NCBI GenBank assembly: GCA_018650465.1
Contig: JABIFY010000104.1
Coordinates: forward strand, 6,107 to 70,106
Direction: 5' to 3'
DNA: 64,000 bases
From: Alphaproteobacteria bacterium
GTDB taxonomy: Bacteria > Pseudomonadota > Alphaproteobacteria > UBA2966
In this document: positions 15,761-56,839 of the stretch, in pieces
Position numbering within the stretch: the first letter of the stretch is position 1
How the letters are laid out: each line of letters begins with the position of its first letter
Made by a program: the position numbers and the translations under genes
The notes under the pieces: model-generated
What the model was told of the DNA's origin: nothing
The model's database searches: none
The model's input: the letters and a program-made list of their open reading frames with translations, nothing else

Positions 15761-15894
15761 GTCTGAATAAACCGGAAAGAAGCCTGGTCGTCCAAGGGCG
15801 GCCAGGCTTCTGCCGTTTACAGAACAATTTCCGCTGTTTGTATTGTTTGATTTCATTTCGAAAAGACGAATTTCTCAGATAGAAAAGACGAATA

Positions 15895-39600: not shown

Positions 39601-39834
39601 TTCTTTGTTGCGAAAAACAGCCATGGCTTTTTCAAGCTCATGCTTATCGACCCAGCTATTGCCAATGTCATGACCAATCAGGTCGTCCAGACTGGCCGCA
39701 CCAAACATGCGGGCCAGGGCGGAATTCACAAACAGACGTTCACCCGTTTCCGGATCCAGCACCGCAACGCCGATGGGACTGGCTTCAAGCAAGTCACGTA
39801 ATATGGCGTCAGCGGAAATTTCAGATGTGCTCAT
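36607..39834 (-). CDS. Multi-PAS hybrid sensor histidine kinase with receiver and C-terminal Hpt domains (unorthodox kinase).
   Basis: Several PAS/PAC segments are present. HisKA H-box SHEIRTPMNGVIGMLDLL. HATPase_c N, G1 and G2 boxes (NLIGNAIKFT, DSGIGI, GGTGLGLSI). Receiver motif LVLVAEDNLVNQR...DCHMPEMDG. Hpt region HETKGAALYAAA. I placed the start at ATG 39834. Confidence 0.85.
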   Translation of the reverse strand: MSTSEISADAILRDLLEASPIGVAVLDPETGERLFVNSALARMFGAASLDDLIGHDIGNSWVDKHELEKAMAVFRNKEVLNNFEAERTRIDGSRWWVLMNTQPVIFEGQDAGIIWHVDISERKLVEEELRSRQEIINEAVKIANLGHWTWDLLLDKCTYCSEEYARIYGYSTEEYLNRLSSGDLDYLNAHPDDKDLHLEIVLEANHNGTAWDHTYRIISRNGETRYVREIGNPVVDDNGHLIQSIGTIQDITERKQAETDAENARLAAATAEARLRDILEALPIGVLEFDSDKQIRFWNQAFLDITGLSIEVLNDNSDYLELAHYIYDNFVGYQEDTFDVFCENWVKNALPDQRRMTDQIFTEPYYDLQHYAAPLPTGGYVNAYVDVTPQKTAEREALEARDQAQAAAIAKSSFLATMSHEIRTPMNGVIGMLDLLTRSKLDRSQREMAETVRTSAFSLLRIIDDILDFSKIEAGQLKFERYPFSLCQAVEAVGETLVPGAREKGLAISLFIDPAIPEPLLGDPVRLRQVLFNLIGNAIKFTKSGFVTVRAELQKQPEGSSTSRRQNINFSVEDSGIGIPQHAQEGLFDAFVQAESSTNRRFGGTGLGLSICAHLIELQGGKIDVISQPGKGSNFIFNLAYDLAADEKPLRDIADNDLADLNVLLVMWLETNNVNLSHYLQHWKADVDTICDIGKATETALAKAKSGRKYDIVVLGAHWSMTYQYEICDQIRAMPELAGTRFVLFTFDRMWSGDTGMDDTVVVSVAPLHRADFLTAVAVAAGRISPEVRHIEELEYHDEIEPLSIEDAEQTGSLVLVAEDNLVNQRVILRQLNRLGYTAIMAEDGREAMEKFSLHKYGLLLTDCHMPEMDGFELCAAIRATEKGQDVRLPIVAITANALQGEAERCLAAGMDDFVAKPVELKQLQAVVQKWLPDAVPTVSLPVEGDTYSGALEAANSTPINFARLREISGEDDTEFLIETLEFFREMIADTPDRLAQLIRNKDAKALCEAAHETKGAALYAAAIDLSDLMKNLEFAARANDWQEIAKLEDLIKPSFTEVTTYILSLSSGERSISP

Positions 39835-39962
39835 GATCTTTCGGCGTTGTTCCTGAAGGCTGGTGCCGAGTATGCGGTTGCCCCGACAGAACAGCAACCA
39901 TTACCCGTCTGTCATGATGCTTCAGGTAGCTGAATTTCGTCCCGGTCAGACCGCAAGGCAGG

Positions 39963-41360: not shown

Positions 41361-42137
41361 TCAGGATTTGGGCCGGGGTAAATCCTGCATTTGATATCGT
41401 GCCAGAAAGTCCTTGTAGGTGCCGTCCTTCGTCATGTCGCGCATCTTCTTTTGCAACGTCTTTATTTTGTATGACGGCACGTCAGTGGACATAGCCAACC
41501 AGACATCAACGGATAAAATTGACTTGCTCTTTTGCAAGTTTTTTATCGGCAACTTCAATGCCTGAAATTCATGCAGTGTTGTGTGCCAACCGCCAAAAAT
41601 GGCATCTACTTTTTTGCCTTCAAGCAAGCGGGCGCAGGACGAATTATCGGGTGCCTTGATCAGGCGTCGATAACCCTTGCGTTTTAAATGCCCCAGCATG
41701 GCCGATCGGGCGAGCACGCAAATACGGGTCGTATCCTTTTTGAATTTGGGTTTTTTGTTCCTGTTCTTGATACTGATGAAATAGGTGTTCGCGCGAAGCA
41801 GGGGATAGACCCACTGGAACAGTTTTTCGCTGCGGTCGGTTCTGGCGGTACCCATTAACGCGACCTGGCCTCCTTTCAAGGCACGTTGATAGGCCTGCGC
41901 CCAGGGCTGTACCTTGACAACATGTTTGACCTTCGCGCGCCGCATGGCCTCTTGCAAAAGATCTGGAATGAAGCCAGTGATCTTGCCGCCCTTTTTGACG
42001 ACAAAGGGGGGCATAACACTGCCAATCAGGGTGATTTTTTCATCGCTTGCGGCCTGCACCAATGATGCGGGCGTCAACAGGCAATACAGGGCAAGGGCAG
42101 CAAGGAGAGTTCTCAAGGTAAATTCCTCGTTCGACAA
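41361..42137 (-). CDS. Periplasmic solute-binding protein (SBP family 3, amino-acid ABC type).
   Basis: A signal peptide is present. An SBP_bac_3-like fold is present (GFIPDLLQEAMRRAK...). Confidence 0.7.
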   Translation of the reverse strand: MSNEEFTLRTLLAALALYCLLTPASLVQAASDEKITLIGSVMPPFVVKKGGKITGFIPDLLQEAMRRAKVKHVVKVQPWAQAYQRALKGGQVALMGTARTDRSEKLFQWVYPLLRANTYFISIKNRNKKPKFKKDTTRICVLARSAMLGHLKRKGYRRLIKAPDNSSCARLLEGKKVDAIFGGWHTTLHEFQALKLPIKNLQKSKSILSVDVWLAMSTDVPSYKIKTLQKKMRDMTKDGTYKDFLARYQMQDLPRPKS

Positions 42138-42686: not shown

Positions 42687-43553
42687 CTACTCAACAATAT
42701 GCAGGATGCCGAAGTCTTCGCCCATGTCGTTGATGTGGTGCAGTTTGTCGAGGATACGTTCGTTCAACCGGGTGCCGGCAGCCAGCACAAGGTTGCCTTC
42801 CTTGGTACGCACGTCAGTTGCCAGTTTTGAGCCTTCCGGTACCGTATCAAGCGTGACGGCAACAGCGGTAACCTTCGCCTTTTCATAGGCCGCCGGGGAT
42901 TGCGCTTCAGGCCCGTCTTCATTTTCTTGCATTGCCGCCTGGCTGGCCGGTTCAGGCGCTTCGGCGGGGCCTGTCGGTTTTGTGGTCCAGACCGCTGCCC
43001 GTGCCGCCTTGTCCGGGTCTGGCTGCAGTTGGTCCACCTTGACATATTCCCGGATAATTTTTTCCAGCATGGCGACGCGGTTTTCCAGGTCATTAACCGT
43101 TTCCGACAGCCCCAGTTTGGCATAATTTTTAGCCGGCAAAAGTTCCTGGCGATCACCCGTCAACAAAGGCGCGATCCTGGATAACAGCATTGTTTTTGAT
43201 ACCGGCTTGGCGATAAAGGCGTCGACATCCAGGGCCATGGCCAAGCCAAGGACAAACTTGTCTGAATAGCCGGTCAACATGGCAAAGGGCAGGTCACGAT
43301 CAACATGGGCTGTTCCGGCGCGCACAGCCTGCAACAGCTCCACCCCGGTCATGTTGGGCATTTTGAAGTCGGAAATGATGCAGTCGATGCCCTCGCCCCT
43401 TTGCGTAAGGACATCAATGGCCTTCTGGCCGTCCTCGGCAATCAGGACCTCTTTGGCACCCATTTCAATCAGCAACTGCTTCACGAGTGAGCGGATGAAT
43501 TCCTCGTCGTCAACGACAAGAAAAATACCGTCCTTGATATCTTTGCCGTTCAT
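42687..43553 (-). CDS. Response regulator: an N-terminal receiver domain plus an uncharacterised C-terminal domain.
   Basis: Receiver motifs FLVVDDEEF...ISDFKMPNMTG...KP are present. The C-terminal ~120 aa are not recognised. Confidence 0.72.
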   Translation of the reverse strand: MNGKDIKDGIFLVVDDEEFIRSLVKQLLIEMGAKEVLIAEDGQKAIDVLTQRGEGIDCIISDFKMPNMTGVELLQAVRAGTAHVDRDLPFAMLTGYSDKFVLGLAMALDVDAFIAKPVSKTMLLSRIAPLLTGDRQELLPAKNYAKLGLSETVNDLENRVAMLEKIIREYVKVDQLQPDPDKAARAAVWTTKPTGPAEAPEPASQAAMQENEDGPEAQSPAAYEKAKVTAVAVTLDTVPEGSKLATDVRTKEGNLVLAAGTRLNERILDKLHHINDMGEDFGILHIVE

Positions 43554-44938
43554 TTGATTACCCCATCCCTTCTTAATGTTGATACGTACAAGACTATACG
43601 TTGAAACTCTGCCTGCATATCACCCACCAGCGATTTCGTAACTGCCGGATCAACATAAGACGCGCCGGCTTCAAGTTTCGCCGCCAATTTGGCCAAACCC
43701 AAAGCACCTGCATTGGCTGCGACGCCCTTGGCGGCATGAGCAGCATCTTCAATTTCTGTCAAATCATTCTCATCAACCTGTTCCACTGCCGATACCAGAC
43801 GGTTCAGGTTAGCGGGAAAAATGGCTTCGAAGCGTGCCAGCAACTGATCTCGCGCGACATCACTTTTATCGCCCAAAATATCTGCAATTTTTTCCAGATT
43901 GACCGGGGACGATATGCCGGACGGCAGTTTGTTCTGGTCGCCGCCATTGGTGGTCAATTGTTTGAAAGTAATATCGCGACCGTCCAGTTTCTCATCCAGC
44001 ATGCGGGCCAGACCAGCCAGAACCAATGGTTTGAACAACACGCCATCCATACCGGCGTCCATGCAGGTTTCCAGGATGGTCGATGTTTCACGAGCCGTCC
44101 AGCCGATGACCGGCAATCGTGTCAGGCTCTGACTTTCTTGTTCGCGAAGCTGCCGGGTAAAGTCGAAACCGTCCATGCCCGGCATCAGACAATCCACAAG
44201 GGCCAGATCCCAGTCCGAGTTTGCCTTGTTGACCTGGTTCAGGGCGTCTTGTCCGTCTGTTGCTATGCCACAATAAACTCCCAGTTTGGCCAACTGCCTG
44301 GCAGCCAGTTCCCGGTTCATGAGGTTGTCATCAACGACCAGGACGCGGACCTGAGAGGATGACGCGTCCGGATTTTGGCCGGTTTCAAGTCGTTGAGCCA
44401 GAAGGTCAATGACATCTTTGAAATCTTCCCGTGTGTCGGTTCGCATTTCGCAAATCACAACCATTTCAGCACCAGAGTCTTTCAGGCCCTGGATCACTTC
44501 ATCTTCAATACGCTCGTTACCGGCGGGCATATGGATGATGACCTTCAGTGCCGTGGATAGACCGTATTCTTGCTCAACAAGCGCCCCGGCGGAAGACAAA
44601 TTAAGCGCCGCCGCTGTGTGGGCGCCGCTGGCAGCAAGACTGTCGATCAGAGCTTGGCGGGCAAATTTGTTTCGGCTGGAGACAATCGCCAGGACTTCTG
44701 CCGATAACATGACCTCCTCCAATAACACCTTTGGCCCGGAAAGATCCGGGATCGCTTTTGCGCCGTTCCGATAATGGCAAGAGACAGACAAAGAGGTTAA
44801 ATCGAAGACAACAATCTTCGCGCGCAGTTCAGCCTCACCATATACAGGTGTCTCGCCGTGCCGATTTTGATTGTTCAAATTATGCGTTGTCTTTTTCATC
44901 GTGAGTTCTTTTGGAGTAAGTTCTTTTGGGCTGAGCAT
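43550..44938 (-). CDS. Phosphorelay protein with receiver domain(s) and a C-terminal Hpt domain.
   Basis: Receiver motifs VLVVDDNLMNRE...DCLMPGMDG are present. Hpt region HAAKGVAANAGALGLAKLA. The start is uncertain: ATG 44938 or ATG 44899. Confidence 0.65.
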   Translation of the reverse strand: MLSPKELTPKELTMKKTTHNLNNQNRHGETPVYGEAELRAKIVVFDLTSLSVSCHYRNGAKAIPDLSGPKVLLEEVMLSAEVLAIVSSRNKFARQALIDSLAASGAHTAAALNLSSAGALVEQEYGLSTALKVIIHMPAGNERIEDEVIQGLKDSGAEMVVICEMRTDTREDFKDVIDLLAQRLETGQNPDASSSQVRVLVVDDNLMNRELAARQLAKLGVYCGIATDGQDALNQVNKANSDWDLALVDCLMPGMDGFDFTRQLREQESQSLTRLPVIGWTARETSTILETCMDAGMDGVLFKPLVLAGLARMLDEKLDGRDITFKQLTTNGGDQNKLPSGISSPVNLEKIADILGDKSDVARDQLLARFEAIFPANLNRLVSAVEQVDENDLTEIEDAAHAAKGVAANAGALGLAKLAAKLEAGASYVDPAVTKSLVGDMQAEFQRIVLYVSTLRRDGVIK

Positions 44939-45144
44939 TTTTGGGAACTTGCAGACACAACATGCCGCCGGACCATCGGTTTCGTCAACATTCAGAATGT
45001 TTCCGAAATGTGTCTGACCCAATCCAGGGTTAGGCAATGGCGCTGGAATGACGCAGTATGGCACTCAGCAAATGTGCGCACCGGATTGAACGGCGCGTTG
45101 TGAAAAATTTCCCGAACGGGTTTTAATATATTGAGGACGCTCTG

Positions 45145-48100
45145 GTGCGATATCTGAATAACATAAAGCGCGGTATTTTCCTGGGGCTTATGATTATCGT
45201 TATGTCAGCTGTGACAGTTTCTGCCTCAGCTGCTGACAGCACGATCTCACTCACAGATGCCGAACGCGCCTGGATCAAAGCCAATCCGCGCATTCGTGTC
45301 CACAACGAGATGGATTGGCCGCCCTTTAATTTCGCCAGAGAGGACCAGGCCCAGGGTTATTCTATTGATTTCATGAATCTTGTGGCCAGCAGCACCGGAC
45401 TACAGGTCGATTATGTAACCGGCCCCACATGGGGTGAGTTTCTGGAATTGATGAAAAGCGGCAAGCTGGATGTCATGCTGAACATCGTCAAAACGCCAGC
45501 ACGCCAGAAGTACCTTTTATATACCCGTCCCTATGCCGATAATCCCAACACCATTCTCAGTCGTCGCGATGCGCCCTATGACAGTCTTGAACAATTGTTT
45601 GGTAAAACCATTTCCGTGCCCAAGGGGTTTTTCTATGAAGAAATCCTCAAACGCGAATATCCCAAAATAAAACTTCATCTGGTCAAGGACACGCTGGAGA
45701 CCATGAAGGCTGTGACTTTCGGTAAGGCGGATGCGGCTTTGGGAGAACTGGCTGTATTCAATCACTTGCTGGGTGCCCATTTAATGACCGGTCTTGGCGT
45801 TTCCGGCGAAGTGAAAATGGGCAACCCCGAATATGCCTTGCTGAATATGGCCACCCGGACAGACACGCCATTGTTGGCGTCCATTCTGGACAAGGGTATC
45901 AAATCCATCACGATCGAACAGATCAGGGCCATCCAGCGCAAATGGCTGGGTGAGACACGTGTCAGTCAAGACCCTGCGCGGTCCATGGCGTTGACCAGTG
46001 CGCAAAAGGACTGGCTGGTGCAGCATCCGGTTATTCGTCTTGGCATTGATCCCGATTACCCACCCTTCGAGTTTGAATCCGAAGATGGCAAATTGTCGGG
46101 TATTTCCGCCGACTATCTCAGGCTGATCAACAAACGTTTGGGTACAGATATCAAGGTCGTACCTGGTCTGAAATGGCCGGAAGTTATCGCCGGTGTTGAG
46201 GCAGGGTCAGTGGATATATTGTCGGCGGCTCTGCGGTCCCCTGTGCGCGAAAAGTTTCTGTTGTTCAGCAAGCCACATCTTGAATTTCCTGTCGTCATCC
46301 TGACCCGCGATGATTATCCCTTTGTGGCGAACCTGGATGATCTCACGGGTAAAAAAATTGCCCTGGTGCGCGATTTTTCCGTCACCGATCTGATCCGCAA
46401 GAACTTCCCGCAAGTGGTTCCACACATGGTCGATACCCCCTTGGCTGCGCTTCAGGCTGTGTCCGTTGGGGATGCCGAGGCCGCTGTGATCAATCTGGCA
46501 GTAGCGACAAACTTTATCCGCACAAACAATCTGATCAACATCAAGGTTGCAGCCCCTGCCGGGTTGGATATCAAGGGTCTGGCCTTTGCTGTGCGCAAGG
46601 ACTGGCCAGAATTGGTGGGAATTCTCAACAAGGCCCTGGCATCGATTACGCCGGAAGAGGAAGCCCAAATTCGCAACCGGTGGATTTCGGTTCGCTATGA
46701 ACATGTCGCGGACACAGAAGCGTTGGTCAAGGTTGCCTTGCAGGTCGGTGCCGTTGCCGTTGTTATCTTGCTGCTGATCGTGTTCTGGAACCGGCGATTA
46801 CGACAGGAAATTGGCCGTCGCGAAGCCACGGAAACTGAGTTGACCGAAAAGGAAGCTTTGCTGCGACTGGCATTGGCGCAGATGTCGGACGGCATTTATC
46901 AACTGGATAACCAGTTGCGCTATACCTTGTTTAATGATCGATACGTGGAGTTGGTTGATGTGCCACAAAACCTTGTGCAGGTTGGCATGCCGGTCGAGCG
47001 TGTCGTGCGTCACCTGGCCCAGCGTGGAGATTATGGTGAGGGTGAAATCGAAACTCTGGTGCAAAAACGCCTGAGAGAATTCATCTTGCCTGATCCGATC
47101 AGCGTCGAAGTCACGACACCTGACAAAATACTGGAATTTCGCCAGACCCCGGCGGCTGATGGTGGCATGGTTGCTGTTGCCTCGGATATTACCGAGCGCA
47201 AGCAATATGAAGAAATCCTGCGCAAGGCCAAAGACGATGCCGAAGCCTCTGCCCAGGCCAAATCTGATTTTATCGCGGTTGTCAGTCACGAAGTTCGCAC
47301 CCCCATGAACGGGGTGCTGGGTATGGCCCGCCTGATGCTGGAAACGCCGCTTATCGGTGAACAGGTTGAATATGCCCAGACGATAGTGGATTCCGGAGAG
47401 GCCTTGCTGACGATTCTCAATGATCTGTTGGATATCTCGAAACTGGAAGCCGGGAAACTTGAGATCGAAGCCTTTGCTTTTGCGCCACGTCGCTTGATTG
47501 CAGATACAGGTAATGTCATGCGACCGAGGGCCGTTGAAAAGGGATTGAAAACACAGTTCCGCGTTGGAGATAATGTTCCCCTTGCCGTCATCGGTGATGC
47601 CAACCGGTTGCGCCAGATCGTGTTTAATTTGCTCAGCAATGCCATCAAGTTTACGGACCGGGGCGAAGTTGAAATCGCCGTGGAGGCACAGGAAACCGGC
47701 GAGGATACCGTTGAATTGATTGTCAGTGTAACAGACACTGGCGCCGGTATTGATCCTGAGTCGGCGGACAAATTGTTTGCACCTTATGTTCAGGCCAATG
47801 TTGATATTGCCCGCAGGTATGGTGGTACAGGCCTTGGTCTGTCGATCAGCCGTCGCCTTGCCGGCTTGATGGGTGGTTATCTCACGCTGCAAAGCGAAGT
47901 TGGCAAGGGGAGCACCTTTACCTTGACCGTTCCCTTTGAAACCACTGAATCCATACCCACAGAGGCACGAGACAACACGCACTGGACGGACAAAAGTTTT
48001 GGTCGGGGTTTGCGGATCTTGCTGGTGGAAGACAACCGCATTAACCGCAAAGTCGCCGAAGGCATGATCGGCAAACTGGGCCACAAACTTGTTGCGGCGG

Positions 48101-49491
48101 AAAACGGCCAGGAGGCGTTGGAAAAAATTGCCACGGAAGATCCCTTTGATGTGGTCCTTATGGACCGACACATGCCGGTTATGGATGGCATTGAGGCCAC
48201 ACGGCGGATCCGTGCCATGGAGGGCATTGAAGGGACTATACCTATTATTGCCGTGACGGCAGCGGCAACCCAGCGCGAGGTCGAAACCTGTCTTGAAGCC
48301 GGTATGAATGATGTTGTGACCAAGCCCATTGATCCCAGACTGCTGGATATCGCCCTGAAGCGGATATCCTTGTCAGATGAACATGTGCCGGACCAGGATG
48401 TGTTGACGGACGACACCCACAGCGCGGATGCAGCGGTACTGGACCTTGGCGTCATCGATGCCCTGAACAAGGATTATGGTGAAGATTCAGCCGCGGAGTT
48501 TTTTGATATGTTCCGGGAAATTGCCCCCGAAGCCATAAGTGGTTTTCAGGCAGCGGTTGTGGCCGGGGACGTCGGTCAGATGACACATTTTTCTCACGAC
48601 CTGAAAAGTAGCGCTGCCAATGTTGGCCTGATGCGTTTGTCTGGCTTGTGTCGTGATATTGAAATGGCATCAGATGATGGCCGGATGGAAGAGGCCTGCA
48701 AAATGGGCGAGGCCTTGCCCGTGGCGCTGGCGCAAGCTTTGCGCGCACTGGTAACGCTTGAGCGTGACGATGTTATGGGCACCGAACCGGCTGATGCACA
48801 AGCCTTGTTCCTGGCGAAAATGGGTCATGATTTGCGAAATGTCATGAACAATGTGACGGGCTATGTTGCCTTGCTGCAAGAGGACAGGGACGCCAACCAT
48901 TCACCGGAAACGGTGGCGGGGTATGCCGCGGAAATTCGCCGCGGTGGTGACCGCATGCAGGGCATGAGCGAATGTATGTTTGACCTGATCCAGCTGCAGG
49001 CGGGAACGTGGCCCTACAAGGCGCAATCATTTGATTTGAACCATGCCGTGCAGGATTGTATTGCGGTATCGGACAGCCAGGGCAACGAAGATGCCCAAGC
49101 GGCAGATCAAATCCGGATTGATTTTCAGCCGCTGGCAGACTCTGTACAGGCTTATGGCGATCCGGCGGCCTTTCGAAAGATGCTGACTCTTTTGCTTCTC
49201 AATGCGACGTCCACCAGTGCCGCAGCAAGCGAAGTCAGGGTCCATCTGGATACTGCTGGCCCGGAAACCGTTCTGGTCGTCAGCGATCAAGGATCCGGAA
49301 TTGGACTGGAAGTCGCGGCCCAGATTAACGATCCCTATGGCAGCGTGTGGCAAGGGTCGGATGGGACATCTGTGCAAAACCTGCGCTTTGCCGTGGCCGC
49401 CGGTCTGGCTGCTTTGGCTGGCAGCAGCCTGGGCCTTGCCGACAGTCCTGAAGGAGGGACACGGGCCTCGGTTTCCCTGAAGGGAAACTGA
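45145..49491 (+). CDS. BvgS-like hybrid sensor kinase. It has a signal peptide, two periplasmic SBP family 3 (Venus-flytrap) domains, TM, PAS, HisKA, HATPase, receiver and Hpt, plus an additional C-terminal HisKA/HATPase-like module.
   Basis: GTG start with a GAGGA ribosome-binding site. H-box VSHEVRTPMNGVLGMARLM. N/G boxes NLLSNAIKFT, DTGAGI, GGTGLGLSI. Receiver ILLVEDNRINRK...DRHMPVMDG. Hpt HFSHDLKSSAANVGL. A second H-box-like segment (MGHDLRNVMNNVTGYVALL) and N/G-like boxes (LLLNATSTS; VSDQGSGIGLE) lie at the C-terminus. Confidence 0.85.
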   Translation: MRYLNNIKRGIFLGLMIIVMSAVTVSASAADSTISLTDAERAWIKANPRIRVHNEMDWPPFNFAREDQAQGYSIDFMNLVASSTGLQVDYVTGPTWGEFLELMKSGKLDVMLNIVKTPARQKYLLYTRPYADNPNTILSRRDAPYDSLEQLFGKTISVPKGFFYEEILKREYPKIKLHLVKDTLETMKAVTFGKADAALGELAVFNHLLGAHLMTGLGVSGEVKMGNPEYALLNMATRTDTPLLASILDKGIKSITIEQIRAIQRKWLGETRVSQDPARSMALTSAQKDWLVQHPVIRLGIDPDYPPFEFESEDGKLSGISADYLRLINKRLGTDIKVVPGLKWPEVIAGVEAGSVDILSAALRSPVREKFLLFSKPHLEFPVVILTRDDYPFVANLDDLTGKKIALVRDFSVTDLIRKNFPQVVPHMVDTPLAALQAVSVGDAEAAVINLAVATNFIRTNNLINIKVAAPAGLDIKGLAFAVRKDWPELVGILNKALASITPEEEAQIRNRWISVRYEHVADTEALVKVALQVGAVAVVILLLIVFWNRRLRQEIGRREATETELTEKEALLRLALAQMSDGIYQLDNQLRYTLFNDRYVELVDVPQNLVQVGMPVERVVRHLAQRGDYGEGEIETLVQKRLREFILPDPISVEVTTPDKILEFRQTPAADGGMVAVASDITERKQYEEILRKAKDDAEASAQAKSDFIAVVSHEVRTPMNGVLGMARLMLETPLIGEQVEYAQTIVDSGEALLTILNDLLDISKLEAGKLEIEAFAFAPRRLIADTGNVMRPRAVEKGLKTQFRVGDNVPLAVIGDANRLRQIVFNLLSNAIKFTDRGEVEIAVEAQETGEDTVELIVSVTDTGAGIDPESADKLFAPYVQANVDIARRYGGTGLGLSISRRLAGLMGGYLTLQSEVGKGSTFTLTVPFETTESIPTEARDNTHWTDKSFGRGLRILLVEDNRINRKVAEGMIGKLGHKLVAAENGQEALEKIATEDPFDVVLMDRHMPVMDGIEATRRIRAMEGIEGTIPIIAVTAAATQREVETCLEAGMNDVVTKPIDPRLLDIALKRISLSDEHVPDQDVLTDDTHSADAAVLDLGVIDALNKDYGEDSAAEFFDMFREIAPEAISGFQAAVVAGDVGQMTHFSHDLKSSAANVGLMRLSGLCRDIEMASDDGRMEEACKMGEALPVALAQALRALVTLERDDVMGTEPADAQALFLAKMGHDLRNVMNNVTGYVALLQEDRDANHSPETVAGYAAEIRRGGDRMQGMSECMFDLIQLQAGTWPYKAQSFDLNHAVQDCIAVSDSQGNEDAQAADQIRIDFQPLADSVQAYGDPAAFRKMLTLLLLNATSTSAAASEVRVHLDTAGPETVLVVSDQGSGIGLEVAAQINDPYGSVWQGSDGTSVQNLRFAVAAGLAALAGSSLGLADSPEGGTRASVSLKGN

Positions 49492-49603: not shown

Positions 49604-50305
49604 GTGAGTCAAATGGCCGAACAAAGTGGGGTCCTGGGGCCGGAAAGCATTCTCGTTATTGAGGATGATCTTGCCTTTGCCAGGCTATTGGTCACTTTTC
49701 TGAAGAAACAGGGGTACGATGCCGAAACAGTACCTACCGCGGCAGAAATGTTTCAGAAACTGGAAGACAAAACCTACGATTGTCTGATCGTTGACTTAAC
49801 CTTGCCGGATGAAGACGGCATTGTTCTGGTGCGCAAACTTCGGGCCCGCGCCATTGGCCCCTTGATCGTCCTGACCGGGCGCGACGGGATTGATGACAAG
49901 CTGGCCAGTTTTGAAGTTGGTGCGGATGATTATGTCACCAAGCCCGTTGACCCCCGCGAAATTGTGATGCGCATCAAAGCTGTGCGCAGCCGATCAACAA
50001 CTTACGGCGCGGACGCGGCCGACAAGATCAAGCTGGGCTCATATTTACTGGACCATGAAAAACGGGAAGTCAGCCGCGAAGATCAAACACTGGTGGACGT
50101 GACCCCCGCCGAATTCAATCTCATGTGGGTTTTGGCCCAGGCTGAGGGTAAAGTCCTTAGCCGCGATATCCTGGTGGACGCGGTTTCAACAGGTGATGGC
50201 CCGGCATCCTTTCGTGCCGTTGATATTCTGGTCAGCCGGGTGCGCAAGAAACTCGACAAGGAAGCCATTCTGACTGTACCCAACAGCGGCTACAAATGTG
50301 GCTGA
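49604..50305 (+). CDS. OmpR-family response regulator (receiver plus winged-helix DNA-binding domain).
   Basis: Receiver ILVIEDDLAFARLL...DLTLPDEDG. OmpR C-terminal trans_reg_C pattern LTPAEFNLMWVLA...VSRVRKKL. Confidence 0.85.
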   Translation: MSQMAEQSGVLGPESILVIEDDLAFARLLVTFLKKQGYDAETVPTAAEMFQKLEDKTYDCLIVDLTLPDEDGIVLVRKLRARAIGPLIVLTGRDGIDDKLASFEVGADDYVTKPVDPREIVMRIKAVRSRSTTYGADAADKIKLGSYLLDHEKREVSREDQTLVDVTPAEFNLMWVLAQAEGKVLSRDILVDAVSTGDGPASFRAVDILVSRVRKKLDKEAILTVPNSGYKCG

Positions 50306-50477: not shown

Positions 50478-50750
50478 ATGGCGAATATCGGAAATCATAC
50501 TTTTGTTGACGGCGTCGGTGACATTCGGTTGCGCGATGGCGTGGTACGCATGGACCTGCTGGCCCTGTCACCAACCCGCCGTGACCAGGAAGGCAGCCCA
50601 GTTCCGCAGTTTGTTGATCAGCTGGTGATGTCACCTCGTGCATTTCTGCGCATGGTTTCTGCCCTTGGCGATACCGTTCGCCAGATGCAGGAAAAAGGCA
50701 TGCTTGGCAGCGCCGCTGAAGCTGGCGAAGAAGCTGCAGCAGAAGCCTGA
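50478..50750 (+). CDS. Small protein, paralogue A (90 aa). It has a conserved ~65-aa N-terminal domain and an Ala/Glu-rich tail. Function unknown.
   Basis: The GGAAAAAG ribosome-binding site is 5 nt upstream. Residues 8-68 are nearly identical to those of the ORF at 50840. A rho-independent terminator follows. Confidence 0.55.
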   Translation: MANIGNHTFVDGVGDIRLRDGVVRMDLLALSPTRRDQEGSPVPQFVDQLVMSPRAFLRMVSALGDTVRQMQEKGMLGSAAEAGEEAAAEA

Positions 50751-50839: not shown

Positions 50840-51169
50840 ATGCCCAGTATTTCAGAACAATCATTTATCGATGGCGTTGGCGATATCCGTTTGCGTGACG
50901 GCATCATCCGCATGGATTTGTTGGCCTTGTCACCAACACGCCGTGACCAGGAAGGTAATCCTGTCCCACAGTTTGTTGATCAACTGGTCATGTCACCAGC
51001 CGCCTTTTTGCGCATGGTTTCGGCCCTGGGTGACACTGTCAAACAGATGCATGACAAGGGCTTGCTGACTAGTCCCGCATCTGACCAGCCTGAAGCAGCC
51101 GCTGAACAGCCATCGGTCACAAGCTCTGGCAAGAAGAAAAAGGAAAAAAAGGTATCGCCGAATTTTTGA
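50840..51169 (+). CDS. Small protein, paralogue B (109 aa). It has the same N-terminal domain and a divergent Ser/Thr/Lys-rich tail.
   Basis: Core FIDGVGDIRLRDGIIRMDLLALSPTRRDQEGNPVPQFVDQLVMSPAAFLRMVSALGDTV, closely matching paralogue A. Confidence 0.55.
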   Translation: MPSISEQSFIDGVGDIRLRDGIIRMDLLALSPTRRDQEGNPVPQFVDQLVMSPAAFLRMVSALGDTVKQMHDKGLLTSPASDQPEAAAEQPSVTSSGKKKKEKKVSPNF

Positions 51170-51239: not shown

Positions 51240-52076
51240 TTGAAAATGACAGACCAAACCACAGATACGAACGGCGCATTCCGCGCTCTGGTTGTTGATG
51301 ACAACGCCATGTCCCGCAAGATGCTGGAACATCGCCTGGTCAAGGATGGCCATCAGGTAACCTGCGTTACCAGTGGTGAAGAAGCCCTCGACTATGTAGT
51401 TAATCATCCTGTTGACGTCATGTTCCTGGATTTGCATCTGACAGGTATCGATGGGATTGAAGTCCTCAAAGCGCTGAAGGCCGACGAGAAGACAAGCGAT
51501 ATTAACGTTGTCATGGTTTCAGGCAGTGACCGGGAAGAAGCTGTGATTGAAAGCCTGCGGGCCGGTGCCAAAGTCTTTTTGCATAAACCTGTCGCCGCCC
51601 AGGACTTGCGTGATGCCATGCACAAACTGTCGGGTTCATCCATCCGCGAGAATCATAATGGCACCCCGCCTTCGATTTCGCCGAACACATCTGCCGAACC
51701 AGTTATATCGATCGAAGATTCCCCTGTTCTCAATCCAGCGCAGCTCCAGCAATTGTTACGGGATTATGGTGCGACGGAGACAACAGGGTTCATCAATCGC
51801 TTCGCTGAACTGGCGCCAGGTCAGTGTGAATATGTTCAGGACCGTGCCGCGACAGGTGATGTGAATGAATGGCGTTTCGCGGTTCATGACCTGAAGGGCA
51901 GTGCCCGGTCGGTAGGCCTGGTACGTCTGGGCACCATTTGCCGCGACATTGAACGGGCCTTTGACGAAGACCGCATTGAAGACGCGGCCTCATTGACGGC
52001 CTTGTTGCCGGATCAACTTGAACACGCGCTGGCAACACTTCGCCAACAAGGCGCCCAGATTACCGGGGAGACGTGA
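51240..52076 (+). CDS. Response-regulator receiver protein with a C-terminal Hpt-like domain.
   Basis: Receiver ALVVDDNAMSRK...DLHLTGIDG...KP. Hpt-like HDLKGSARSVGL. Confidence 0.72.
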   Translation: MKMTDQTTDTNGAFRALVVDDNAMSRKMLEHRLVKDGHQVTCVTSGEEALDYVVNHPVDVMFLDLHLTGIDGIEVLKALKADEKTSDINVVMVSGSDREEAVIESLRAGAKVFLHKPVAAQDLRDAMHKLSGSSIRENHNGTPPSISPNTSAEPVISIEDSPVLNPAQLQQLLRDYGATETTGFINRFAELAPGQCEYVQDRAATGDVNEWRFAVHDLKGSARSVGLVRLGTICRDIERAFDEDRIEDAASLTALLPDQLEHALATLRQQGAQITGET

Positions 52077-52077
52077 C

Positions 52078-52842
52078 GTGGCGCGCCTAGTTTTCGACTT
52101 TAGTGTTTTGCGGGTCTTGTTGGTAGAAGACGACACCTTCGCCCGCGAAATGGAATTGACAGCCTTGCAGCATCTTGGCATTTCACGCATCACCATTGCC
52201 AGCGATGGCACGGATGCGCTGGATATTCTGGAGCGCAACAAAACCTTTGATCTGATCATTTCTGACTGGAATATGCGGCCCCTGGATGGCATTGGCCTGG
52301 TCACATCGGTGCGCCGTCACTGGCCCTCAATTGCCTTTGTTATGATCACCAACAATGAAACCGTTGAGCGGGTTCACCAGGCAACAGATGCGGGGGTCGA
52401 TGGTTATCTGATTAAACCTTTTTCCCTGAACAAACTGCGTGAAGTTATTCAACTTGCCTTGATGTCCCGGGTGGAAAGTGCAGAAGGGCTGTTCTTCGAT
52501 CAATCGAAACAGCGCCCCGCCAATCCCGAACTGGACGAGGTTTCGAACTGGCTGCACGGTGTTCTTGCCCAGCCGGTGGACCAGGCGGGTGGTGTTGAAC
52601 AAAAAAATGATGAGGCCATCACGGTTCTGGAAAACCGGAACCTGGCCGCGAAAGTCTCTAATCAATTGACCGGTTTCATAAGCCTGCTGGATGCCTCTGA
52701 CCCCGCCCAGCTTTCAGTCATTCGCCTGCATGTCGATTGCATCCGGGCCATTTTATCCGGCCGCAATGATTTACTGGAGCACGAAACACGCAACGCAATA
52801 CTCGACGGCCTGACACTCGCAGCCGACCTTGTGACAGATTAG
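52078..52842 (+). CDS. Response regulator: a receiver domain plus an uncharacterised C-terminal domain.
   Basis: Receiver VLLVEDDTFAREME...SDWNMRPLDG...KP. The probable start is GTG 52078, directly after the upstream stop. The track ORF begins at 52018. Confidence 0.6.
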   Translation: MARLVFDFSVLRVLLVEDDTFAREMELTALQHLGISRITIASDGTDALDILERNKTFDLIISDWNMRPLDGIGLVTSVRRHWPSIAFVMITNNETVERVHQATDAGVDGYLIKPFSLNKLREVIQLALMSRVESAEGLFFDQSKQRPANPELDEVSNWLHGVLAQPVDQAGGVEQKNDEAITVLENRNLAAKVSNQLTGFISLLDASDPAQLSVIRLHVDCIRAILSGRNDLLEHETRNAILDGLTLAADLVTD

Positions 52843-52851
52843 GAAAAGACC

Positions 52852-54996
52852 ATGCATACCGCCATCACCTGTTTTGTCCTGACGGCCCGCCGACACGGTG
52901 TGCATACGACTGTCGAACGTGTTGTTCATGATTATGCCATCCAGGATGAACCCACTGCAGCCCGCGTTGTTCGCATTGCCCAGGATCTGGGCCTGAAGGG
53001 TCGTTCGCGCAAAATCAAATGGGAAACATTAGCCCGCGTCGGCAAAGCCTTCCCATTGTTGTGCCCCCTGAAAAATGGCAACTGGGTGGTTCTGGCGTCG
53101 TTGGATGCGGGGACCGCAGACCAGGCTCCGGCAGCCCTGATCCTGGATCCCATGAGCGAGGGTGGCGGCCTGATCCGGGTTGACCAGGAGATGCTTGAAA
53201 AAGCCTGGACAGGTGAAGTGGTTTTCCTCAAGCGGGCCAGTCAGATCACGGACGAAGATCAACCTTTTGGTTTTCGCTGGTTTGTGCCGGAAATCTTGCG
53301 CCACAAATCCCTCTTTGTCGAAATCGGCATTGCAGCCCTGTTCATGCATGTCCTGGCCCTGGCCTCACCTGTGTTCTTTCAGATCACGCTGGATAAAGTC
53401 ATTGGCAATCAGGCCATCGATACCTTGTATGTGTTGGCAGGTGGCGTTTTTGTCGCTTTCACTTTCAATGCCATCCTGGAATACCTCAGAAGTCTTTTGC
53501 TGCTGCACGCCACCGGCAAAATGGATGTACGGGTGGCGACGCGCACTTTTGGCAAGCTCATGAGTTTGCCCATCGATTTTTTCCGCGGCACCTCGGCCGG
53601 TACCCTGACCAAACATATGCAGCAGACCGGCAGTGTGCGCGAATTTCTCACCGGGCGCTTGTTCCTGACATTCCTCGATATGACAGCCGTTTTTGTCTAT
53701 CTGCCGATCCTGTTCTTTTATTCATCTGCGTTGACCTGGGTTGTCCTGGGCTTTACCGGTGCGATCTCCGCCATCAGCTTTGTCATCAAGGGACCTTATC
53801 GCCGTCGTCTGTTGGCCCTCTATCGGGCAGAAGGTGCGCGCCAATCCATGCTGGTAGAAACCATCGGCGGCATGGAAACGGTCAAGGCCCTGGCGATTGA
53901 ACCCATCAAGGAAAAAGTCTGGGCCGATACATCTGCTCAGGCCGTTGCCATGCAATTGTCGGTCGGCAAAATCTCTCATCTGGTCAAGGGCCTGACAAAG
54001 TATCTCGGCCAGTTGATGACCATGATGATCATCTTTGTTGGTGCCCAGATGGTATTCTCTGGCGACGTCAGCGTTGGCGCCTTGATTGCCTTTAATATGC
54101 TGGCCGGTCGGGTCAGCGGCCCTTTGATCCAGGCCGTTGGTTTGATCAACGAATTCGAACAGTCTTCGCTCTCGGTCAAGATGCTGGGCGAAGTCATGAA
54201 CCAAAAACCCGAGCGTGCCTCTACCGGTGGTCTGACACCAAAAATTCGCGGCGATATTGAATTTGATAACGTCACCTTTCGTTATGGCAAGGATGGCCCG
54301 CCCGCGTTGAGCAACATGTCTTTCAAAATTGACGCCGGTCAGGTGGTTGGCATCGTCGGGCGCTCTGGTTCCGGAAAGAGTTCCGTGCTGCGCATCTTTC
54401 AGGGACTGTATCGCCCAACTTCAGGTCTGATCCGCATTGATGGTGTGGATGTGCGGGAAATTGATCTGGCACATTTACGCATGAATACGGGTGTGGTCTT
54501 GCAGGAAAGCTTTTTGTTCCGGGGCACCGTACGAGATAACATCGCGGTTACCCGTCCGGAATCAGCCTTCGCTGATATCGTGGCGGCGGCAAAAATGGCT
54601 GGTGCCGACGAGTTCATCCAACGATTACCACAAGGGTATGACACGGTACTTGAAGAAGGGGCTTCGAACCTATCCGGTGGGCAGAAGCAGCGCCTCGCTA
54701 TTGCCCGCTCGCTGATGCGCCAGCCCCGGTTCCTGGTTCTGGATGAAGCGACCAGCGCCCTGGATCCGGAAAGTGAAGCAATTGTCCAGGCCAACCTGCA
54801 ACAGATTGCCGCCGGGCGGACCGTACTGATCGTCTCGCACCGCCTGTCGACCCTGGTTGATGCCGATACCATCATGGTGGTTGAAGAAGGCCGGATCGCC
54901 GAGCAAGGCAGCCATAGCGAACTTCTGAACAACAGTGAAATTTATCGCCAACTTTGGTATACCCAGAACCCGGAGCAGAACCGTGCAGCAGAATAG
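52852..54996 (+). CDS. Type I secretion ABC transporter (HlyB/bacteriocin-exporter family) with an N-terminal C39-like domain, a 6-TM domain and a C-terminal NBD.
   Basis: Walker A GRSGSGKSS. ABC signature LSGGQKQRLAIAR. Walker B FLVLDEATSALD. An N-terminal ~130-aa C39-like segment is present (AITCFVLTARRHG...). By eye the peptidase catalytic Cys position appears to be substituted. Confidence 0.82.
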   Translation: MHTAITCFVLTARRHGVHTTVERVVHDYAIQDEPTAARVVRIAQDLGLKGRSRKIKWETLARVGKAFPLLCPLKNGNWVVLASLDAGTADQAPAALILDPMSEGGGLIRVDQEMLEKAWTGEVVFLKRASQITDEDQPFGFRWFVPEILRHKSLFVEIGIAALFMHVLALASPVFFQITLDKVIGNQAIDTLYVLAGGVFVAFTFNAILEYLRSLLLLHATGKMDVRVATRTFGKLMSLPIDFFRGTSAGTLTKHMQQTGSVREFLTGRLFLTFLDMTAVFVYLPILFFYSSALTWVVLGFTGAISAISFVIKGPYRRRLLALYRAEGARQSMLVETIGGMETVKALAIEPIKEKVWADTSAQAVAMQLSVGKISHLVKGLTKYLGQLMTMMIIFVGAQMVFSGDVSVGALIAFNMLAGRVSGPLIQAVGLINEFEQSSLSVKMLGEVMNQKPERASTGGLTPKIRGDIEFDNVTFRYGKDGPPALSNMSFKIDAGQVVGIVGRSGSGKSSVLRIFQGLYRPTSGLIRIDGVDVREIDLAHLRMNTGVVLQESFLFRGTVRDNIAVTRPESAFADIVAAAKMAGADEFIQRLPQGYDTVLEEGASNLSGGQKQRLAIARSLMRQPRFLVLDEATSALDPESEAIVQANLQQIAAGRTVLIVSHRLSTLVDADTIMVVEEGRIAEQGSHSELLNNSEIYRQLWYTQNPEQNRAAE

Positions 54997-56839
54997 TTCC
55001 GGGGACTTGACGACAGAGCCCCAAGCCTCAAGCCAGCCTGGCGACCTCACGACAACGGCAGATGTACCTGCCTATGCCCTGACCACAGCCGGCGAAACCC
55101 TGACCTTTGAAACCGATACCGAGATCTTCAAAGAAGGCGCTGCCAGTGATTATGCCTATATCGTCGTTGAAGGCGGGATCGAGCTGACCAAGGATATGAG
55201 TGGCTCGGAAGTTTTCCTGGCCGAAATTGGGCCGGGTGATCTGTTCGGTGAAATGGGTTTGATCGATGGCAGCCTGCGCAGTGCCACGGCGACGAGCCTG
55301 GGCAATACCGTGCTGATGAGAATCGACCGCGAAGAATTGATGCGCAAACTTGGTCAGGAGGGCGACTTCGCTGCGCCCGTACTGGGGCAACTTGTTGCCC
55401 AATTGCGCAATACAAGTGACCGCCTGGCCCACGAGCGCCATTTGACTTTGCAGCGTGCCGCCGAGACGGCGGAATATATAGAGCCCGTCAGCATGGGGCC
55501 TCTTTCCAGGTTGCGCTATTTCTTTGATGCTGAACAGGACTTGATTGAATTCCAGCCGGATGCTGTGGAAATCGACCGCCAGAAATTTCCGGCGGTGGCC
55601 AAGGTCATGCTCTATGTGATTATTTTCTTCATTACCGGCCTGTTTGTCTGGGCGAATTATTCGACCATCGATACGGCTGTGGCTGCTTTCGGCCGTATGA
55701 CGACCAAGGTGCCGAACATCATTGTGCAGCCGTCCGAGACGGCGAAAATCATGACGATCCATGTGCGGGCCGGTGACATTGTCAAAAAAGGCCAGTTGCT
55801 GGCGACACTTGATGCCACAAATGCCCAGTCTGACGCCAATGTCAGCCGAACATCATTATTGCAGATCCGTGCCCAGGAACGTCGATTGGTGGCTGAGAAC
55901 AGCGGCATTGTTATGCCGGGCGGCTTTTCCAAAGATGCCGCCGTAAACAGTTTGCAGCAGGAAATTTTTGATCGCCGTAGAACCCGCCTCGAACAACAGC
56001 AAGCTTCATACGTTGAGCAAATTGAGCAGATCAAATCTGATATCTCGTCGAATGTCCAGGACGCAAAGGATCTGGGTGAACAGGCAGATGTGTTGAAAGA
56101 AATTGAAGCCATGCGGGCGGGTTTGATGAAAAAGGGTGTGGGCAGCCGGGTGAATTACCTCAGCTCAAAACACCAGCGCTTGGCCGTTGACCGCGAGAAG
56201 CGTCGCTTGCTGAGTACGCGCAGAAGTATGGAACATCAACTGAAAGGTCTGCAGGCCGATCGCCAGGCTGCGTTGGCTGAATCGCAATCCAGGGTCGCCC
56301 AGGAACTGGTCGATACCCGCCGCGAACGCGAACGCCTGAGCGAGCAATTGATCAAAAGCGACTATCGGGAAGCTTTGGTCAAACTGACCGCCCCGGCACC
56401 CGGTGTTGTGCTTAAAGTAGCGGAACGCTCTGTCGGCTCCGTTATCCAGCAGGCCGAAATGATGTTTACCATTGTACCGGCAAATGTGCCCGTGGAAATG
56501 GAAGTCGATGTGCAGCCCAAAGACATTGGCTTGATCCAGGTCGGTGATGTTGTGCGTGTCAAACTGGATGCCCTGCCGTTTCAAAAACATGGCATTATCA
56601 AGGGCCGGGTCCGTTTCATAAGTGAAGACGCTGTTCAGACCGAAGGCCGTGAGGCTCGCAGTGTCTATCGTGCCCGTGTGGAACTTTTGAACCGTGATCT
56701 GCGTGAAGTGCCGGACAGTTTCCGACTGACACCGGGTCTGACGGGCAGTGCTGATATCACCGTCGGCAAACGCCGGATCATCACCTACTTTATCTATCCA
56801 CTGGTGCGGGCCTTTGATTCAAGCTTCAAGGAGCCCTGA
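54935..56839 (+). CDS. HlyD-family membrane-fusion (periplasmic adaptor) protein fused to an N-terminal cyclic-nucleotide-binding domain.
   Basis: N-terminal cNMP motif IFKEGAASDYAYIVVEGGIEL...GPGDLFGEMGLIDGSLRSATATS. A single TM is present (VMLYVIIFFITGLFVWA). A long coiled-coil and the HlyD C-terminal beta-domain are present. The start is uncertain: ATG 54935 overlaps the ABC gene by 62 bp, and GTG 54983 is an alternative. Confidence 0.8.
   Translation: MKFIANFGIPRTRSRTVQQNSSGDLTTEPQASSQPGDLTTTADVPAYALTTAGETLTFETDTEIFKEGAASDYAYIVVEGGIELTKDMSGSEVFLAEIGPGDLFGEMGLIDGSLRSATATSLGNTVLMRIDREELMRKLGQEGDFAAPVLGQLVAQLRNTSDRLAHERHLTLQRAAETAEYIEPVSMGPLSRLRYFFDAEQDLIEFQPDAVEIDRQKFPAVAKVMLYVIIFFITGLFVWANYSTIDTAVAAFGRMTTKVPNIIVQPSETAKIMTIHVRAGDIVKKGQLLATLDATNAQSDANVSRTSLLQIRAQERRLVAENSGIVMPGGFSKDAAVNSLQQEIFDRRRTRLEQQQASYVEQIEQIKSDISSNVQDAKDLGEQADVLKEIEAMRAGLMKKGVGSRVNYLSSKHQRLAVDREKRRLLSTRRSMEHQLKGLQADRQAALAESQSRVAQELVDTRRERERLSEQLIKSDYREALVKLTAPAPGVVLKVAERSVGSVIQQAEMMFTIVPANVPVEMEVDVQPKDIGLIQVGDVVRVKLDALPFQKHGIIKGRVRFISEDAVQTEGREARSVYRARVELLNRDLREVPDSFRLTPGLTGSADITVGKRRIITYFIYPLVRAFDSSFKEP

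Follow-up and report, generated by a model that had tools for sequence, protein, structure and literature searches.

What does a second transmitter do when it lies C-terminal to the histidine-containing phosphotransfer (Hpt) domain of a hybrid sensor kinase? The question is raised by the gene at positions 45,145 to 49,491 of a 64,000-nucleotide stretch of DNA from Alphaproteobacteria bacterium (hereafter the window; contig JABIFY010000104.1 of assembly GCA_018650465.1, positions 6,107 to 70,106 of the forward strand), which encodes a sensor kinase of the Venus-flytrap (VFT) type whose signaling domains run in the order transmitter, receiver, phosphotransfer domain, transmitter (T-R-P-T). An earlier note on this DNA, made from its letters alone, had pointed to a possibly degenerate second transmitter in this protein. 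We establish here the fold and family membership of that segment, the pattern of its catalytic motifs, the existence of natural variants that are free-standing or that hold only its domain for dimerization and histidine phosphotransfer (DHp), as well as the pattern of selection that acts on it. The segment is a class I histidine kinase (HK) core, composed of a DHp and a catalytic and ATP-binding (CA) domain, whose H-box is conserved while its ATP boxes are eroded. Below, HK1 (DHp1 and CA1) is the transmitter ahead of the receiver (REC) and HK2 (DHp2 and CA2) the one behind the Hpt domain. We favor, at a probability of roughly 55%, the reading that HK2 is a non-autophosphorylating accessory transmitter, which would dock a receiver as phospho-acceptor, as phosphatase, or as both.

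Domain layout of the sensor kinase

The gene and its product resolve into the following features, with residues numbered along the protein.

45145..49491, + strand: whole gene, for a hybrid ("unorthodox") sensor kinase of the VFT type, 1448 amino acids long, that has one more transmitter at its C-terminus (T-R-P-T); open reading frame (ORF) with a GTG start, Pfam
45163..45237, + strand: hydrophobic signal peptide or anchor, residues ~7-31; Kyte-Doolittle windows >1.6
45277..45954, + strand: VFT1 (SBP_bac_3), periplasmic, residues ~45-270, bounds approximate; Pfam SBP_bac_3 in two stretches, whole-protein E = 2.7e-52
46033..46686, + strand: VFT2 (SBP_bac_3), periplasmic, residues 297-514; best Pfam stretch
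46714..46800, + strand: transmembrane helix, residues ~524-552; hydropathy maximum 2.78
46873..47214, + strand: PAS_7, residues 577-690; Pfam E = 2.5e-28
47257..47940, + strand: HK1, fully canonical, with HisKA at 705-770 (His715) and HATPase_c at 817-932; Pfam, audit of catalytic boxes
48016..48351, + strand: REC, residues 958-1069, Asp1007; Pfam Response_reg E = 1.9e-25
48496..48738, + strand: Hpt, residues 1118-1198, His1151 in HDLKSSAANVG; Pfam Hpt 39.9 bits against a cut-off of 24.6
48799..49005, + strand: DHp2 (second HisKA), residues 1219-1287, with His1228-Asp1229-x-x-Asn1232 and a residue other than Pro at H+5; Pfam HisKA 30.7 bits, helical hairpin in the AlphaFold2 model
49156..49482, + strand: CA2 (second catalytic domain, degenerate), residues 1338-1446; Pfam HATPase_c 34.6 bits

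Both Pfam and hydropathy uphold the BvgS-type domain order that had been proposed from the letters (two SBP_bac_3 domains, a transmembrane helix, PAS, HisKA, HATPase_c, REC, and Hpt), and the two hydrophobic segments of the protein, at residues ~7-31 and ~524-552, fit a periplasmic double-VFT sensor with one transmembrane helix. The protein thus resembles BvgS and EvgS in carrying two periplasmic SBP_bac_3 domains, one transmembrane helix, a PAS domain, and a HisKA-HATPase_c-REC-Hpt series in a single chain, and "BvgS-like" is an apt description of its architecture. The term does not reach further than that: the NCBIfam EvgS model NF007420 gives 299.9 bits against a cut-off of 1995 and covers only residues 166-1084, and the adjacent regulator is of the OmpR type (Trans_reg_C) rather than the NarL/FixJ type. 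BvgS and EvgS, moreover, end at the Hpt domain, whereas here a tail follows, which comprises residues 1202-1448 and is thus ~247 amino acids long (about 245-250) instead of the ~330 given in the earlier note. The two VFT domains have evolved at different rates, with VFT1 82-85% identical to its orthologs versus 51-65% for VFT2, and nonsynonymous divergence (dN) of 0.09-0.12 versus 0.24-0.42; this gap hints that VFT2 may carry lineage-specific ligand specificity.

The product matches, over its whole length and residue for residue, an Alphaproteobacteria protein from a metagenome-assembled genome (MAG; P0002, NCBI) that is found on 14 contigs from several sources, and because of this identity the ORF is not an assembly artifact. 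A chimera in which a hybrid kinase gene and a small kinase gene were merged by a frameshift from sequencing or assembly or by a lost stop codon is a general possibility in any MAG-derived sequence, but it is scarcely credible here, since in addition to the 14 contigs the ORF is continuous in independent orthologs (56-90% identity) and in more distant proteins, and the gap of ~15 residues between Hpt and DHp2 leaves no room for a gene start.

The tail is a second class I transmitter

When the tail was scanned alone, Pfam returned HisKA (PF00512) at residues 1219-1287 with 30.7 bits against a gathering cut-off of 26.9, and HATPase_c (PF02518) at residues 1338-1446 with 34.6 bits against 26.4; for comparison, the whole-protein HATPase_c score, CA1 included, is 133.6 bits, and the scan of the whole protein likewise gave second stretches for both models. 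Both models also exceed their gathering scores in all 19 tail-family members scanned. An exhaustive HMMER search with the tail through 1.84 billion representative sequences gave 68,834 matches at E <= 1e-3, and among solved structures the sequence matches include the GacS core (7Z8N, E = 7e-11) and RetS (6DK7, E = 6e-9). An AlphaFold2 model built from 19 tails (mean predicted local distance difference test score, pLDDT, 85.4; predicted template modeling score, pTM, 0.84) contains a helical DHp hairpin and, after it, an alpha/beta domain of the Bergerat fold, and when it was compared with the Protein Data Bank (PDB) by Foldseek only class I kinase cores came out on top (E = 3e-16 to 1e-11), with HK853 (E = 3e-16), WalK/YycG, an EnvZ chimera, DivL, and the RetS core as the leading matches and TM-scores of up to 0.83.

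The motifs quoted in the earlier note could likewise be placed: the H-box segment is G1227-L1244, with His1228 as phospho-acceptor, the N-box is L1350-S1358 (Asn1353), and G1 is S1380-E1389 (D1381/G1383/G1385), and all three align with the true H-, N-, and G1-boxes of canonical kinases. The tail is therefore a genuine class I transmitter, with DHp and CA domains that align far beyond chance. The outcome that had been named in advance as speaking against a second kinase core, namely a tail that fails to align with the HisKA and HATPase families beyond chance, did not occur, as Pfam, HMMER, and Foldseek all match.

Several other assignments of the tail were considered and rejected. Affiliation with HWE or HisKA_2 kinases is ruled out: neither the HisKA_2 nor the HWE_HK model matches the tail, for which Pfam at E <= 10 gives only HATPase_c, HisKA, and HATPase_c_3. 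No H-kinase_dim match was obtained in the whole protein or in the tail. A CheA-like arrangement, in which CA2 would phosphorylate the Hpt domain, is ruled out by a pattern opposite to that of CheA, the His of DHp2 being invariant and CA2 degenerate. A recent internal duplication of HK1 is ruled out as well, given that HK2 and HK1 share only 30% identity (51 bits), a score below those of HK2 against unrelated kinases. Membership in the ChpT/Spo0B group found no counterpart among the PDB sequence matches (E <= 1) or the top 50 Foldseek matches, although a functional analogy to ChpT/Spo0B-type phosphotransferases is possible. In one of the 19 tails there is a weak match (E = 7e-4) to PF10090 HPTransfase, the ChpT-type C-terminal domain, which may be a faint hint of convergence with phosphotransferases that carry a pseudo-CA domain.

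Erosion of the nucleotide-binding site

An audit of catalytic boxes, in which the HK2 cores of 22 proteins were aligned with 20 HK1 cores from those proteins and read at 22 catalytic positions, separates the two cores sharply. None of the 20 HK1 cores departs from the canonical state at any of these positions. In HK2, the phospho-acceptor His is present in every one of the 22 cores, the acidic residue at H+1 in 21, and an Asn at H+4, which completes the H-E/D-x-x-T/N transmitter-phosphatase motif, in 18. The N-box Asn that coordinates Mg is retained in 21 of 22, but the N-box Lys is found in none, the N-box aromatic residue in two, and the Pro at H+5 in none, and the G1 Asp survives in 15. At G2 the central Gly has become Arg in 18 cores and the following Leu has become Tyr or Phe in 20, while in P0007, P0008, P0013, and P0014 the G1 box is unrecognizable.

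The query itself retains His1228, Asp1229, Asn1232, Asn1353, and D1381-x-G-x-G1385. In its CA2, Ser1356 stands in place of the N-box Lys, and the GGTGLGL of the first core is replaced by S1409-V-Q-N-L-R1414-F1415, with N1412-L-R1414-F1415 at the position of G2. Measured against the full set of nucleotide boxes (N-box Asn and Lys, G1, and the G2 lid), HK2 fails, through loss of the Lys and of G2. The earlier description of this transmitter as possibly degenerate was therefore right, and of the residues then singled out for inspection the conserved His and Asn are present as His1228 and Asn1353 whereas G2 is absent. HK2 also has conserved motifs of its own, HDLRN, a P-(Y/F)-G-x-x-W lid, and LR(Y/F), and there are residues that are invariant across members only 22-40% identical. 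Read from these motifs, HK2 has a preserved receiver-facing H-box and a nucleotide site that is in part dismantled and in part remodeled.

These same residues bear on whether HK2 could be a working autokinase, either atypical or tightly regulated, that is controlled by the upstream REC and Hpt domains, in the manner of REC-HK "response-regulator kinases," and phosphorylates a separate regulator, for example the OmpR-type one encoded downstream, in a two-tier cascade. We regard this as an alternative to be kept in view, though an unlikely one. In its favor, the query retains His1228, the acidic H+1 residue, Asn1353, and an intact G1 (DxGxG), the conserved Arg-Tyr/Phe pair could functionally replace G2, and transmitter 2 of TodS keeps autokinase activity. 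Against it, all 22 cores lack the N-box Lys and a glycine-rich G2 lid, seven have lost the G1 Asp, and in the four named above G1 can no longer be recognized, yet the His is invariant throughout.

Distribution and evolution of the tail

Of the 120 relatives that match the whole protein best, ~16 have the full tail, with 220-250 residues past the Hpt domain that score 61-390 bits against the query tail; their N-terminal sensor regions vary and their overall length ranges from 1438 to 2270 amino acids. Five others of the 120 have only ~95 residues past the Hpt domain, which make up an entire DHp hairpin in which SHDLRN is preserved but which no CA2 follows, and many stop at <=10 residues past the Hpt domain, including P0011, which is 64% identical and has no tail. 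The DHp-only form is real: one such protein, P0077, is found on seven contigs and ends in a genuine stop codon 254 nt ahead of the next gene. More distantly, P0122, P0124, P0125, P0128, and P0247 carry the HK2 signature behind HK1-REC(-Hpt). Finally, P0123 is a free-standing REC-Hpt-HK2 protein of 508 amino acids that is homologous throughout, its REC-Hpt portion being 47% identical to that of the sensor (E = 5e-76); REC-Hpt-HK2 is therefore one evolutionary module, in which HK2 travels with the receiver and not with the sensor domain.

The family can be told from other kinases by a tail profile, to which members score 200-320 bits and ordinary kinases ~180 bits or less. In the 1.84-billion-sequence library, about nine representatives at 50% identity carry the HK2 signature, and a scan of contigs from species-representative genomes gave mostly generic kinases (<=175 bits to the tail profile), with L024 as the only true member (310 bits). 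The family is small, and MAG names and TARA samples point to marine Rhodospirillales-like bacteria as the source of most of it. The arrangement, which the earlier note had called unusual, is rare in published censuses (see below), but the tail is a module conserved across a family and not an isolated curiosity.

Rates of change differ markedly along the protein. In comparisons with orthologs that are ~65% identical overall, identity is 86-89% in DHp1 and 70-75% in CA1, and it falls to 43-61% in DHp2 and 36-41% in CA2. The ratio of nonsynonymous to synonymous divergence (dN/dS) was obtained against the closest available DNA, L093, whose tail is 75% identical (dS 0.65-0.8), and is 0.036 for DHp2, 0.10 for the adjacent Hpt domain, 0.27 for CA2, and 0.36 for the DHp2-CA2 linker. 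For the more distant pairs with L001 and L002, in which synonymous sites are saturated, only dN was used; there, the dN of DHp2 exceeds that of DHp1 by a factor of 3-7, and CA2 exceeds CA1 by a factor of 2-4. A scan of metagenome contigs for close relatives, which would have allowed HK1 and HK2 to be compared by dN/dS in one pair, found none. DHp2 is thus tightly constrained within a lineage but differs between lineages, which is what one would expect if it were a docking surface specific to a partner, and CA2 is relaxed yet not neutral.

This pattern weighs on two of the alternatives. In favor of a decaying remnant of a gene fusion with no present function, no other folded part of the protein evolves as fast as the tail, the linker is almost unconstrained, and close relatives such as P0011 have repeatedly lost or shortened the tail. 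We nonetheless consider decay very unlikely, for DHp2 is more constrained than the neighboring Hpt domain, residues are invariant across members of 22-40% identity, the HDLRN, P(Y/F)GxxW, and LR(Y/F) motifs are conserved, and the reading frame is intact in every member. For an active autokinase the evidence is again divided, in that CA2 is still under purifying selection but evolves 2-4 times faster than CA1, and the DHp-only variants, which have no CA2 at all, retain both the H-box and the downstream OmpR-type regulator.

Comparison with characterized transmitters

A first comparator is RedE of the Myxococcus xanthus RedCDEF system, which does not autophosphorylate, whose His takes a phosphoryl group from a receiver and is essential in vivo, and which is also an ADP-dependent phosphatase of another receiver (PMC2755868). 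The tail is similar to RedE in combining a conserved His with an eroded ATP site, but RedE is a separate small protein that is not fused behind REC-Hpt, and the two are likened by their pattern of activity, predicted in the case of the tail, rather than by sequence. A second comparator is RetS of Pseudomonas aeruginosa, which has a degenerate HATPase domain, is unable to autophosphorylate, and with an intact HExxT motif dephosphorylates the receiver of GacS (PMC5992135; PDB 6DK7/6DK8). The pattern common to RetS and RedE, a degenerate HATPase_c with an H-box His followed by E/D-x-x-T/N, is one that HK2 fits with H1228-D-L-R-N1232, and by fold RetS matches the tail at TM-scores of 0.62-0.70. 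Unlike RetS, which is a separate sensor that acts in trans on GacS, the tail is fused in cis behind the Hpt domain of the unorthodox kinase itself, and at ~18-20% identity the relationship is one of analogy and shared superfamily, not orthology.

In the case of TodS/TmoS, a T-R-T-R relay in which the second transmitter is a phosphotransfer station (PMC4321377, PMC3018481), the similarity is one of arrangement, as two transmitters flank a receiver in one chain (HK1 705-932, REC 958-1069, and HK2 1219-1446 in our protein) and the second His is conserved. The second transmitters of both TodS and RedE have been treated as phosphotransfer domains (PMC3018481). By published descriptions the sensor described here differs from TodS in having an Hpt rather than a PAS domain ahead of transmitter 2, in being membrane-bound rather than soluble, and in having a degenerate CA2 where transmitter 2 of TodS is active as an autokinase.

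A final comparator is DivL of Caulobacter (PMC4211667; PDB 4Q20), an alphaproteobacterial DHp-CA core that has been turned from the autokinase role and that gives the best TM-scores to the tail model (0.76/0.83, with a root-mean-square deviation of 2.8 A). In DivL the His is replaced by Tyr and all of the N-, G1-, F-, and G2-boxes are kept (PMC4211667), which is the reverse of the tail, where the His is kept while the boxes are eroded. DivL and RetS together raise the alternative that HK2 carries out no chemistry and is purely an interaction module, which would either form an inhibitory heterodimer with HK1 or another kinase (mechanism 3 of RetS) or sense a phosphorylated receiver and feed back allosterically as DivL does. 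There are precedents for contacts between kinase cores and for reversed signaling (PMC5992135, PMC4211667), the GacS and RetS cores are among the best solved sequence matches and the pseudokinase DivL is the best by TM-score, and a DHp2 that is frozen within a lineage and divergent between lineages is what a partner-specific interface would produce. Pure binding, however, would not need the invariant His (22/22), its acidic neighbor (21/22), or the Asn at H+4, and the DivL pattern is the opposite one, so that this alternative seems to us improbable, though less so than decay.

A candidate accessory phosphoryl-handling module

We favor instead the view that the tail has been kept as a phosphoryl-handling module, because the H-box is conserved while the ATP boxes are eroded, because DHp-only forms exist, and because DHp2 is held at a dN/dS of 0.036. 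In the proposed scheme, HK1 would autophosphorylate on His715 in response to the periplasmic VFT domains, and the phosphoryl group would pass from His715 to Asp1007 of the internal receiver, then to His1151 of the Hpt domain, and from there to the adjacent OmpR-type regulator. DHp2, through His1228, Asp1229, and Asn1232, would dock a receiver, most plausibly the sensor's own REC or that of a neighboring REC or REC-Hpt protein. Once docked, His1228 might accept the phosphoryl group from the receiver, as in transmitter 2 of TodS and in RedE, or DHp2 might dephosphorylate the receiver by means of its H-D-x-x-N motif, as RetS and RedE do, and it is conceivable that it has both activities. The result would be a cis-acting sink, reset, or side branch built into the relay, with CA2 serving as a structural, nucleotide-cofactor, or regulatory lobe and not as a phosphodonor site. 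What is inferred in this scheme is that HK2 does not autophosphorylate, which partner it docks, and which way the phosphoryl group moves. The roles suggested in the earlier note, an intramolecular phosphatase, a decoy, or an additional phospho-acceptor route, are of this kind, and they are favored by the conservation of the His and of D-x-x-N, the erosion of the ATP boxes, the DHp-only forms, and the selection on DHp2, with RedE, RetS, and TodS as precedents.

Four considerations weigh against this reading. The phosphatase motif is not universal, as a Gly takes the place of the Asn at H+4 in 4 of the 22 HK2 cores. In the query, Asn1353 and the full G1 box are intact, so that nucleotide binding, or even a weak or regulated autokinase activity, is possible. 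The conserved L-R-Y/F that substitutes for G2 suggests a remodeled and perhaps functional lid rather than simple decay. Finally, synteny over the loci that were examined names no tail-specific partner. With regard to the nucleotide site, the fact that most members keep the N-box Asn and G1 could mean that a nucleotide is used as a cofactor, as in RedE, and not in catalysis.

A bolder proposal, which we hold to be unlikely, goes further along the same line and takes REC-Hpt-HK2 as a distinct new module, in which one receiver feeds two His stations and the CA2 lid provides gating by something other than ATP, such as ADP or another nucleotide cofactor. The monomeric Hpt domain may then be the forward route to the OmpR-type regulator and the dimeric DHp2 a side branch, sink, or phosphatase, and the remodeled lid of CA2 may consist of the conserved P-Y/F-G-x-x-W and L-R-Y/F motifs that replace the F- and G2-boxes. 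The ligand gating in this proposal is inferred purely from the Arg and aromatic residues that are conserved in CA2.

Gene neighborhood

Three units of genes for receiver-containing proteins surround the sensor.

49604..50305, + strand: OmpR-family response regulator, 113 nt past the sensor stop codon; Pfam Response_reg and Trans_reg_C
42687..45064, - strand: divergent unit of a 504-amino acid protein, (unknown N-terminus)-REC-Hpt (43550-45064), and a 288-amino acid REC protein (42687-43553); Pfam, synteny
51240..52842, + strand: second pair, REC-Hpt (51240-52076) and REC (52018-52842); Pfam

The OmpR-type regulator is likely the terminal regulator of the relay. It occupies the same position in the P0003, P0004, P0006, P0012, P0018, and P0077 loci, and it lies directly downstream in 7 of the 10 examined loci with a full or DHp-only tail. 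This linkage could be taken as support for an active HK2 with the regulator as its substrate, but the regulator is already accounted for through the Hpt domain, because the geometry is that of a T-R-P sensor with a separate receiver, T-R-P + R (PMC3018481).

The overall layout of the neighborhood is kept in the loci of P0003, a 90%-identical ortholog, and of P0004 and P0006. The divergent REC-Hpt and REC unit is found in L001, L002, and the P0003 contig, and it is also present near the tail-less P0024. A co-occurrence of the tail with a REC-Hpt and REC gene pair, which held in the first five of five loci, was rejected, as the tail-less P0024 has the set and the tail-bearing P0019 has none. Within the divergent unit, the 504-amino acid protein has ~240 N-terminal residues without a Pfam match and an uncertain start codon (orthologs are 422-441 amino acids long), and its gene overlaps by 4 nt that of the 288-amino acid REC protein, whose C-terminal ~160 residues also lack a Pfam match. 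In the downstream pair, the REC-Hpt protein (51240-52076) is a full-length paralog of the sensor's internal REC-Hpt, with 32% identity (BLASTP E = 4e-37). The REC ORF that begins at 52018 with TTG shares its first 59 nt with the end of the REC-Hpt gene and encodes 274 amino acids compared with 249-254 in orthologs, so its true start is probably further downstream.

Between the OmpR-type regulator and this pair lie two tandem small ORFs (50478-50750 and 50840-51169, both + strand) of 90 and 109 amino acids, which are paralogs of 76% identity (E = 5e-51) with no Pfam match; small unannotated ORFs occupy the same place in L002 (11260-11526) and in the P0003 contig (90 and 102 amino acids). Beyond the pair are an ABC exporter with a weakly C39-peptidase-like N-terminus (52852-54996, + strand) and an HlyD-family membrane-fusion protein with an N-terminal cNMP_binding domain (E = 7.7e-20; 54935-56839, + strand). 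The ABC/HlyD genes also follow REC-Hpt and REC in L002, the P0003 contig, and L091, which suggests a type I secretion system under the control of cyclic nucleotide and phosphorelay signals. On the other side of the sensor are a second unorthodox kinase of 1096 amino acids (3x PAS-HisKA-HATPase_c-REC-Hpt, with no tail; 36607-39897, - strand) and an orphan periplasmic SBP_bac_3 binding protein of 258 amino acids (41361-42137, - strand). Together with these two genes, four more that encode REC or REC-Hpt proteins make the region a dense multi-kinase signaling island. One tail-bearing locus, L007 (P0046), has transposase genes at 1534-2372, 4630-5925, and 14732-16048 and no downstream OmpR-type regulator, and it appears to have been rearranged by mobile elements.

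Implications

Two transmitters in one chain are rare, occurring in 51 of 4,650 hybrid kinases in one census (PMC3018481), while another, which covered 7,609 species, counted 392 HK1-RR-HK2 proteins (RR, response regulator) and 39 proteins in which two HK domains are joined by an RR and an HPt domain (PMC4558063). Our search of the literature, the coverage of which was incomplete, found no description of the T-R-P-T order or of the HK2 subfamily. The T-R-P-T protein is an assembly of known parts and precedented activities in an uncharacterized and rare arrangement, and it overturns no principle.

Its interest lies in the way that multi-kinase and branched phosphorelays serve signal integration in bacteria. 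The roles of non-autophosphorylating transmitters have so far been worked out only for a few proteins that act in trans, namely RetS, RedE, and DivL, and in the tail family a transmitter that is degenerate follows in cis, immediately after the Hpt domain of a VFT-type unorthodox kinase. The natural variants, with a full tail, a DHp-only tail, no tail, or a free-standing REC-Hpt-HK2, amount to a ready-made deletion series. Were REC-Hpt-HK2 indeed a module with two His stations, the sensor-fused, DHp-only, and free-standing forms would constitute a new class of branched T-R-P-T phosphorelay whose pseudokinase lobe is gated by a ligand. A tail that acts as a built-in phosphatase or phospho-sink would account for the way in which some unorthodox kinases determine the kinetics of their own reset and would add the T-R-P-T geometry to the known relay designs. 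The conserved Arg-Tyr in place of the G2 lid offers a simple sequence marker for such modules.

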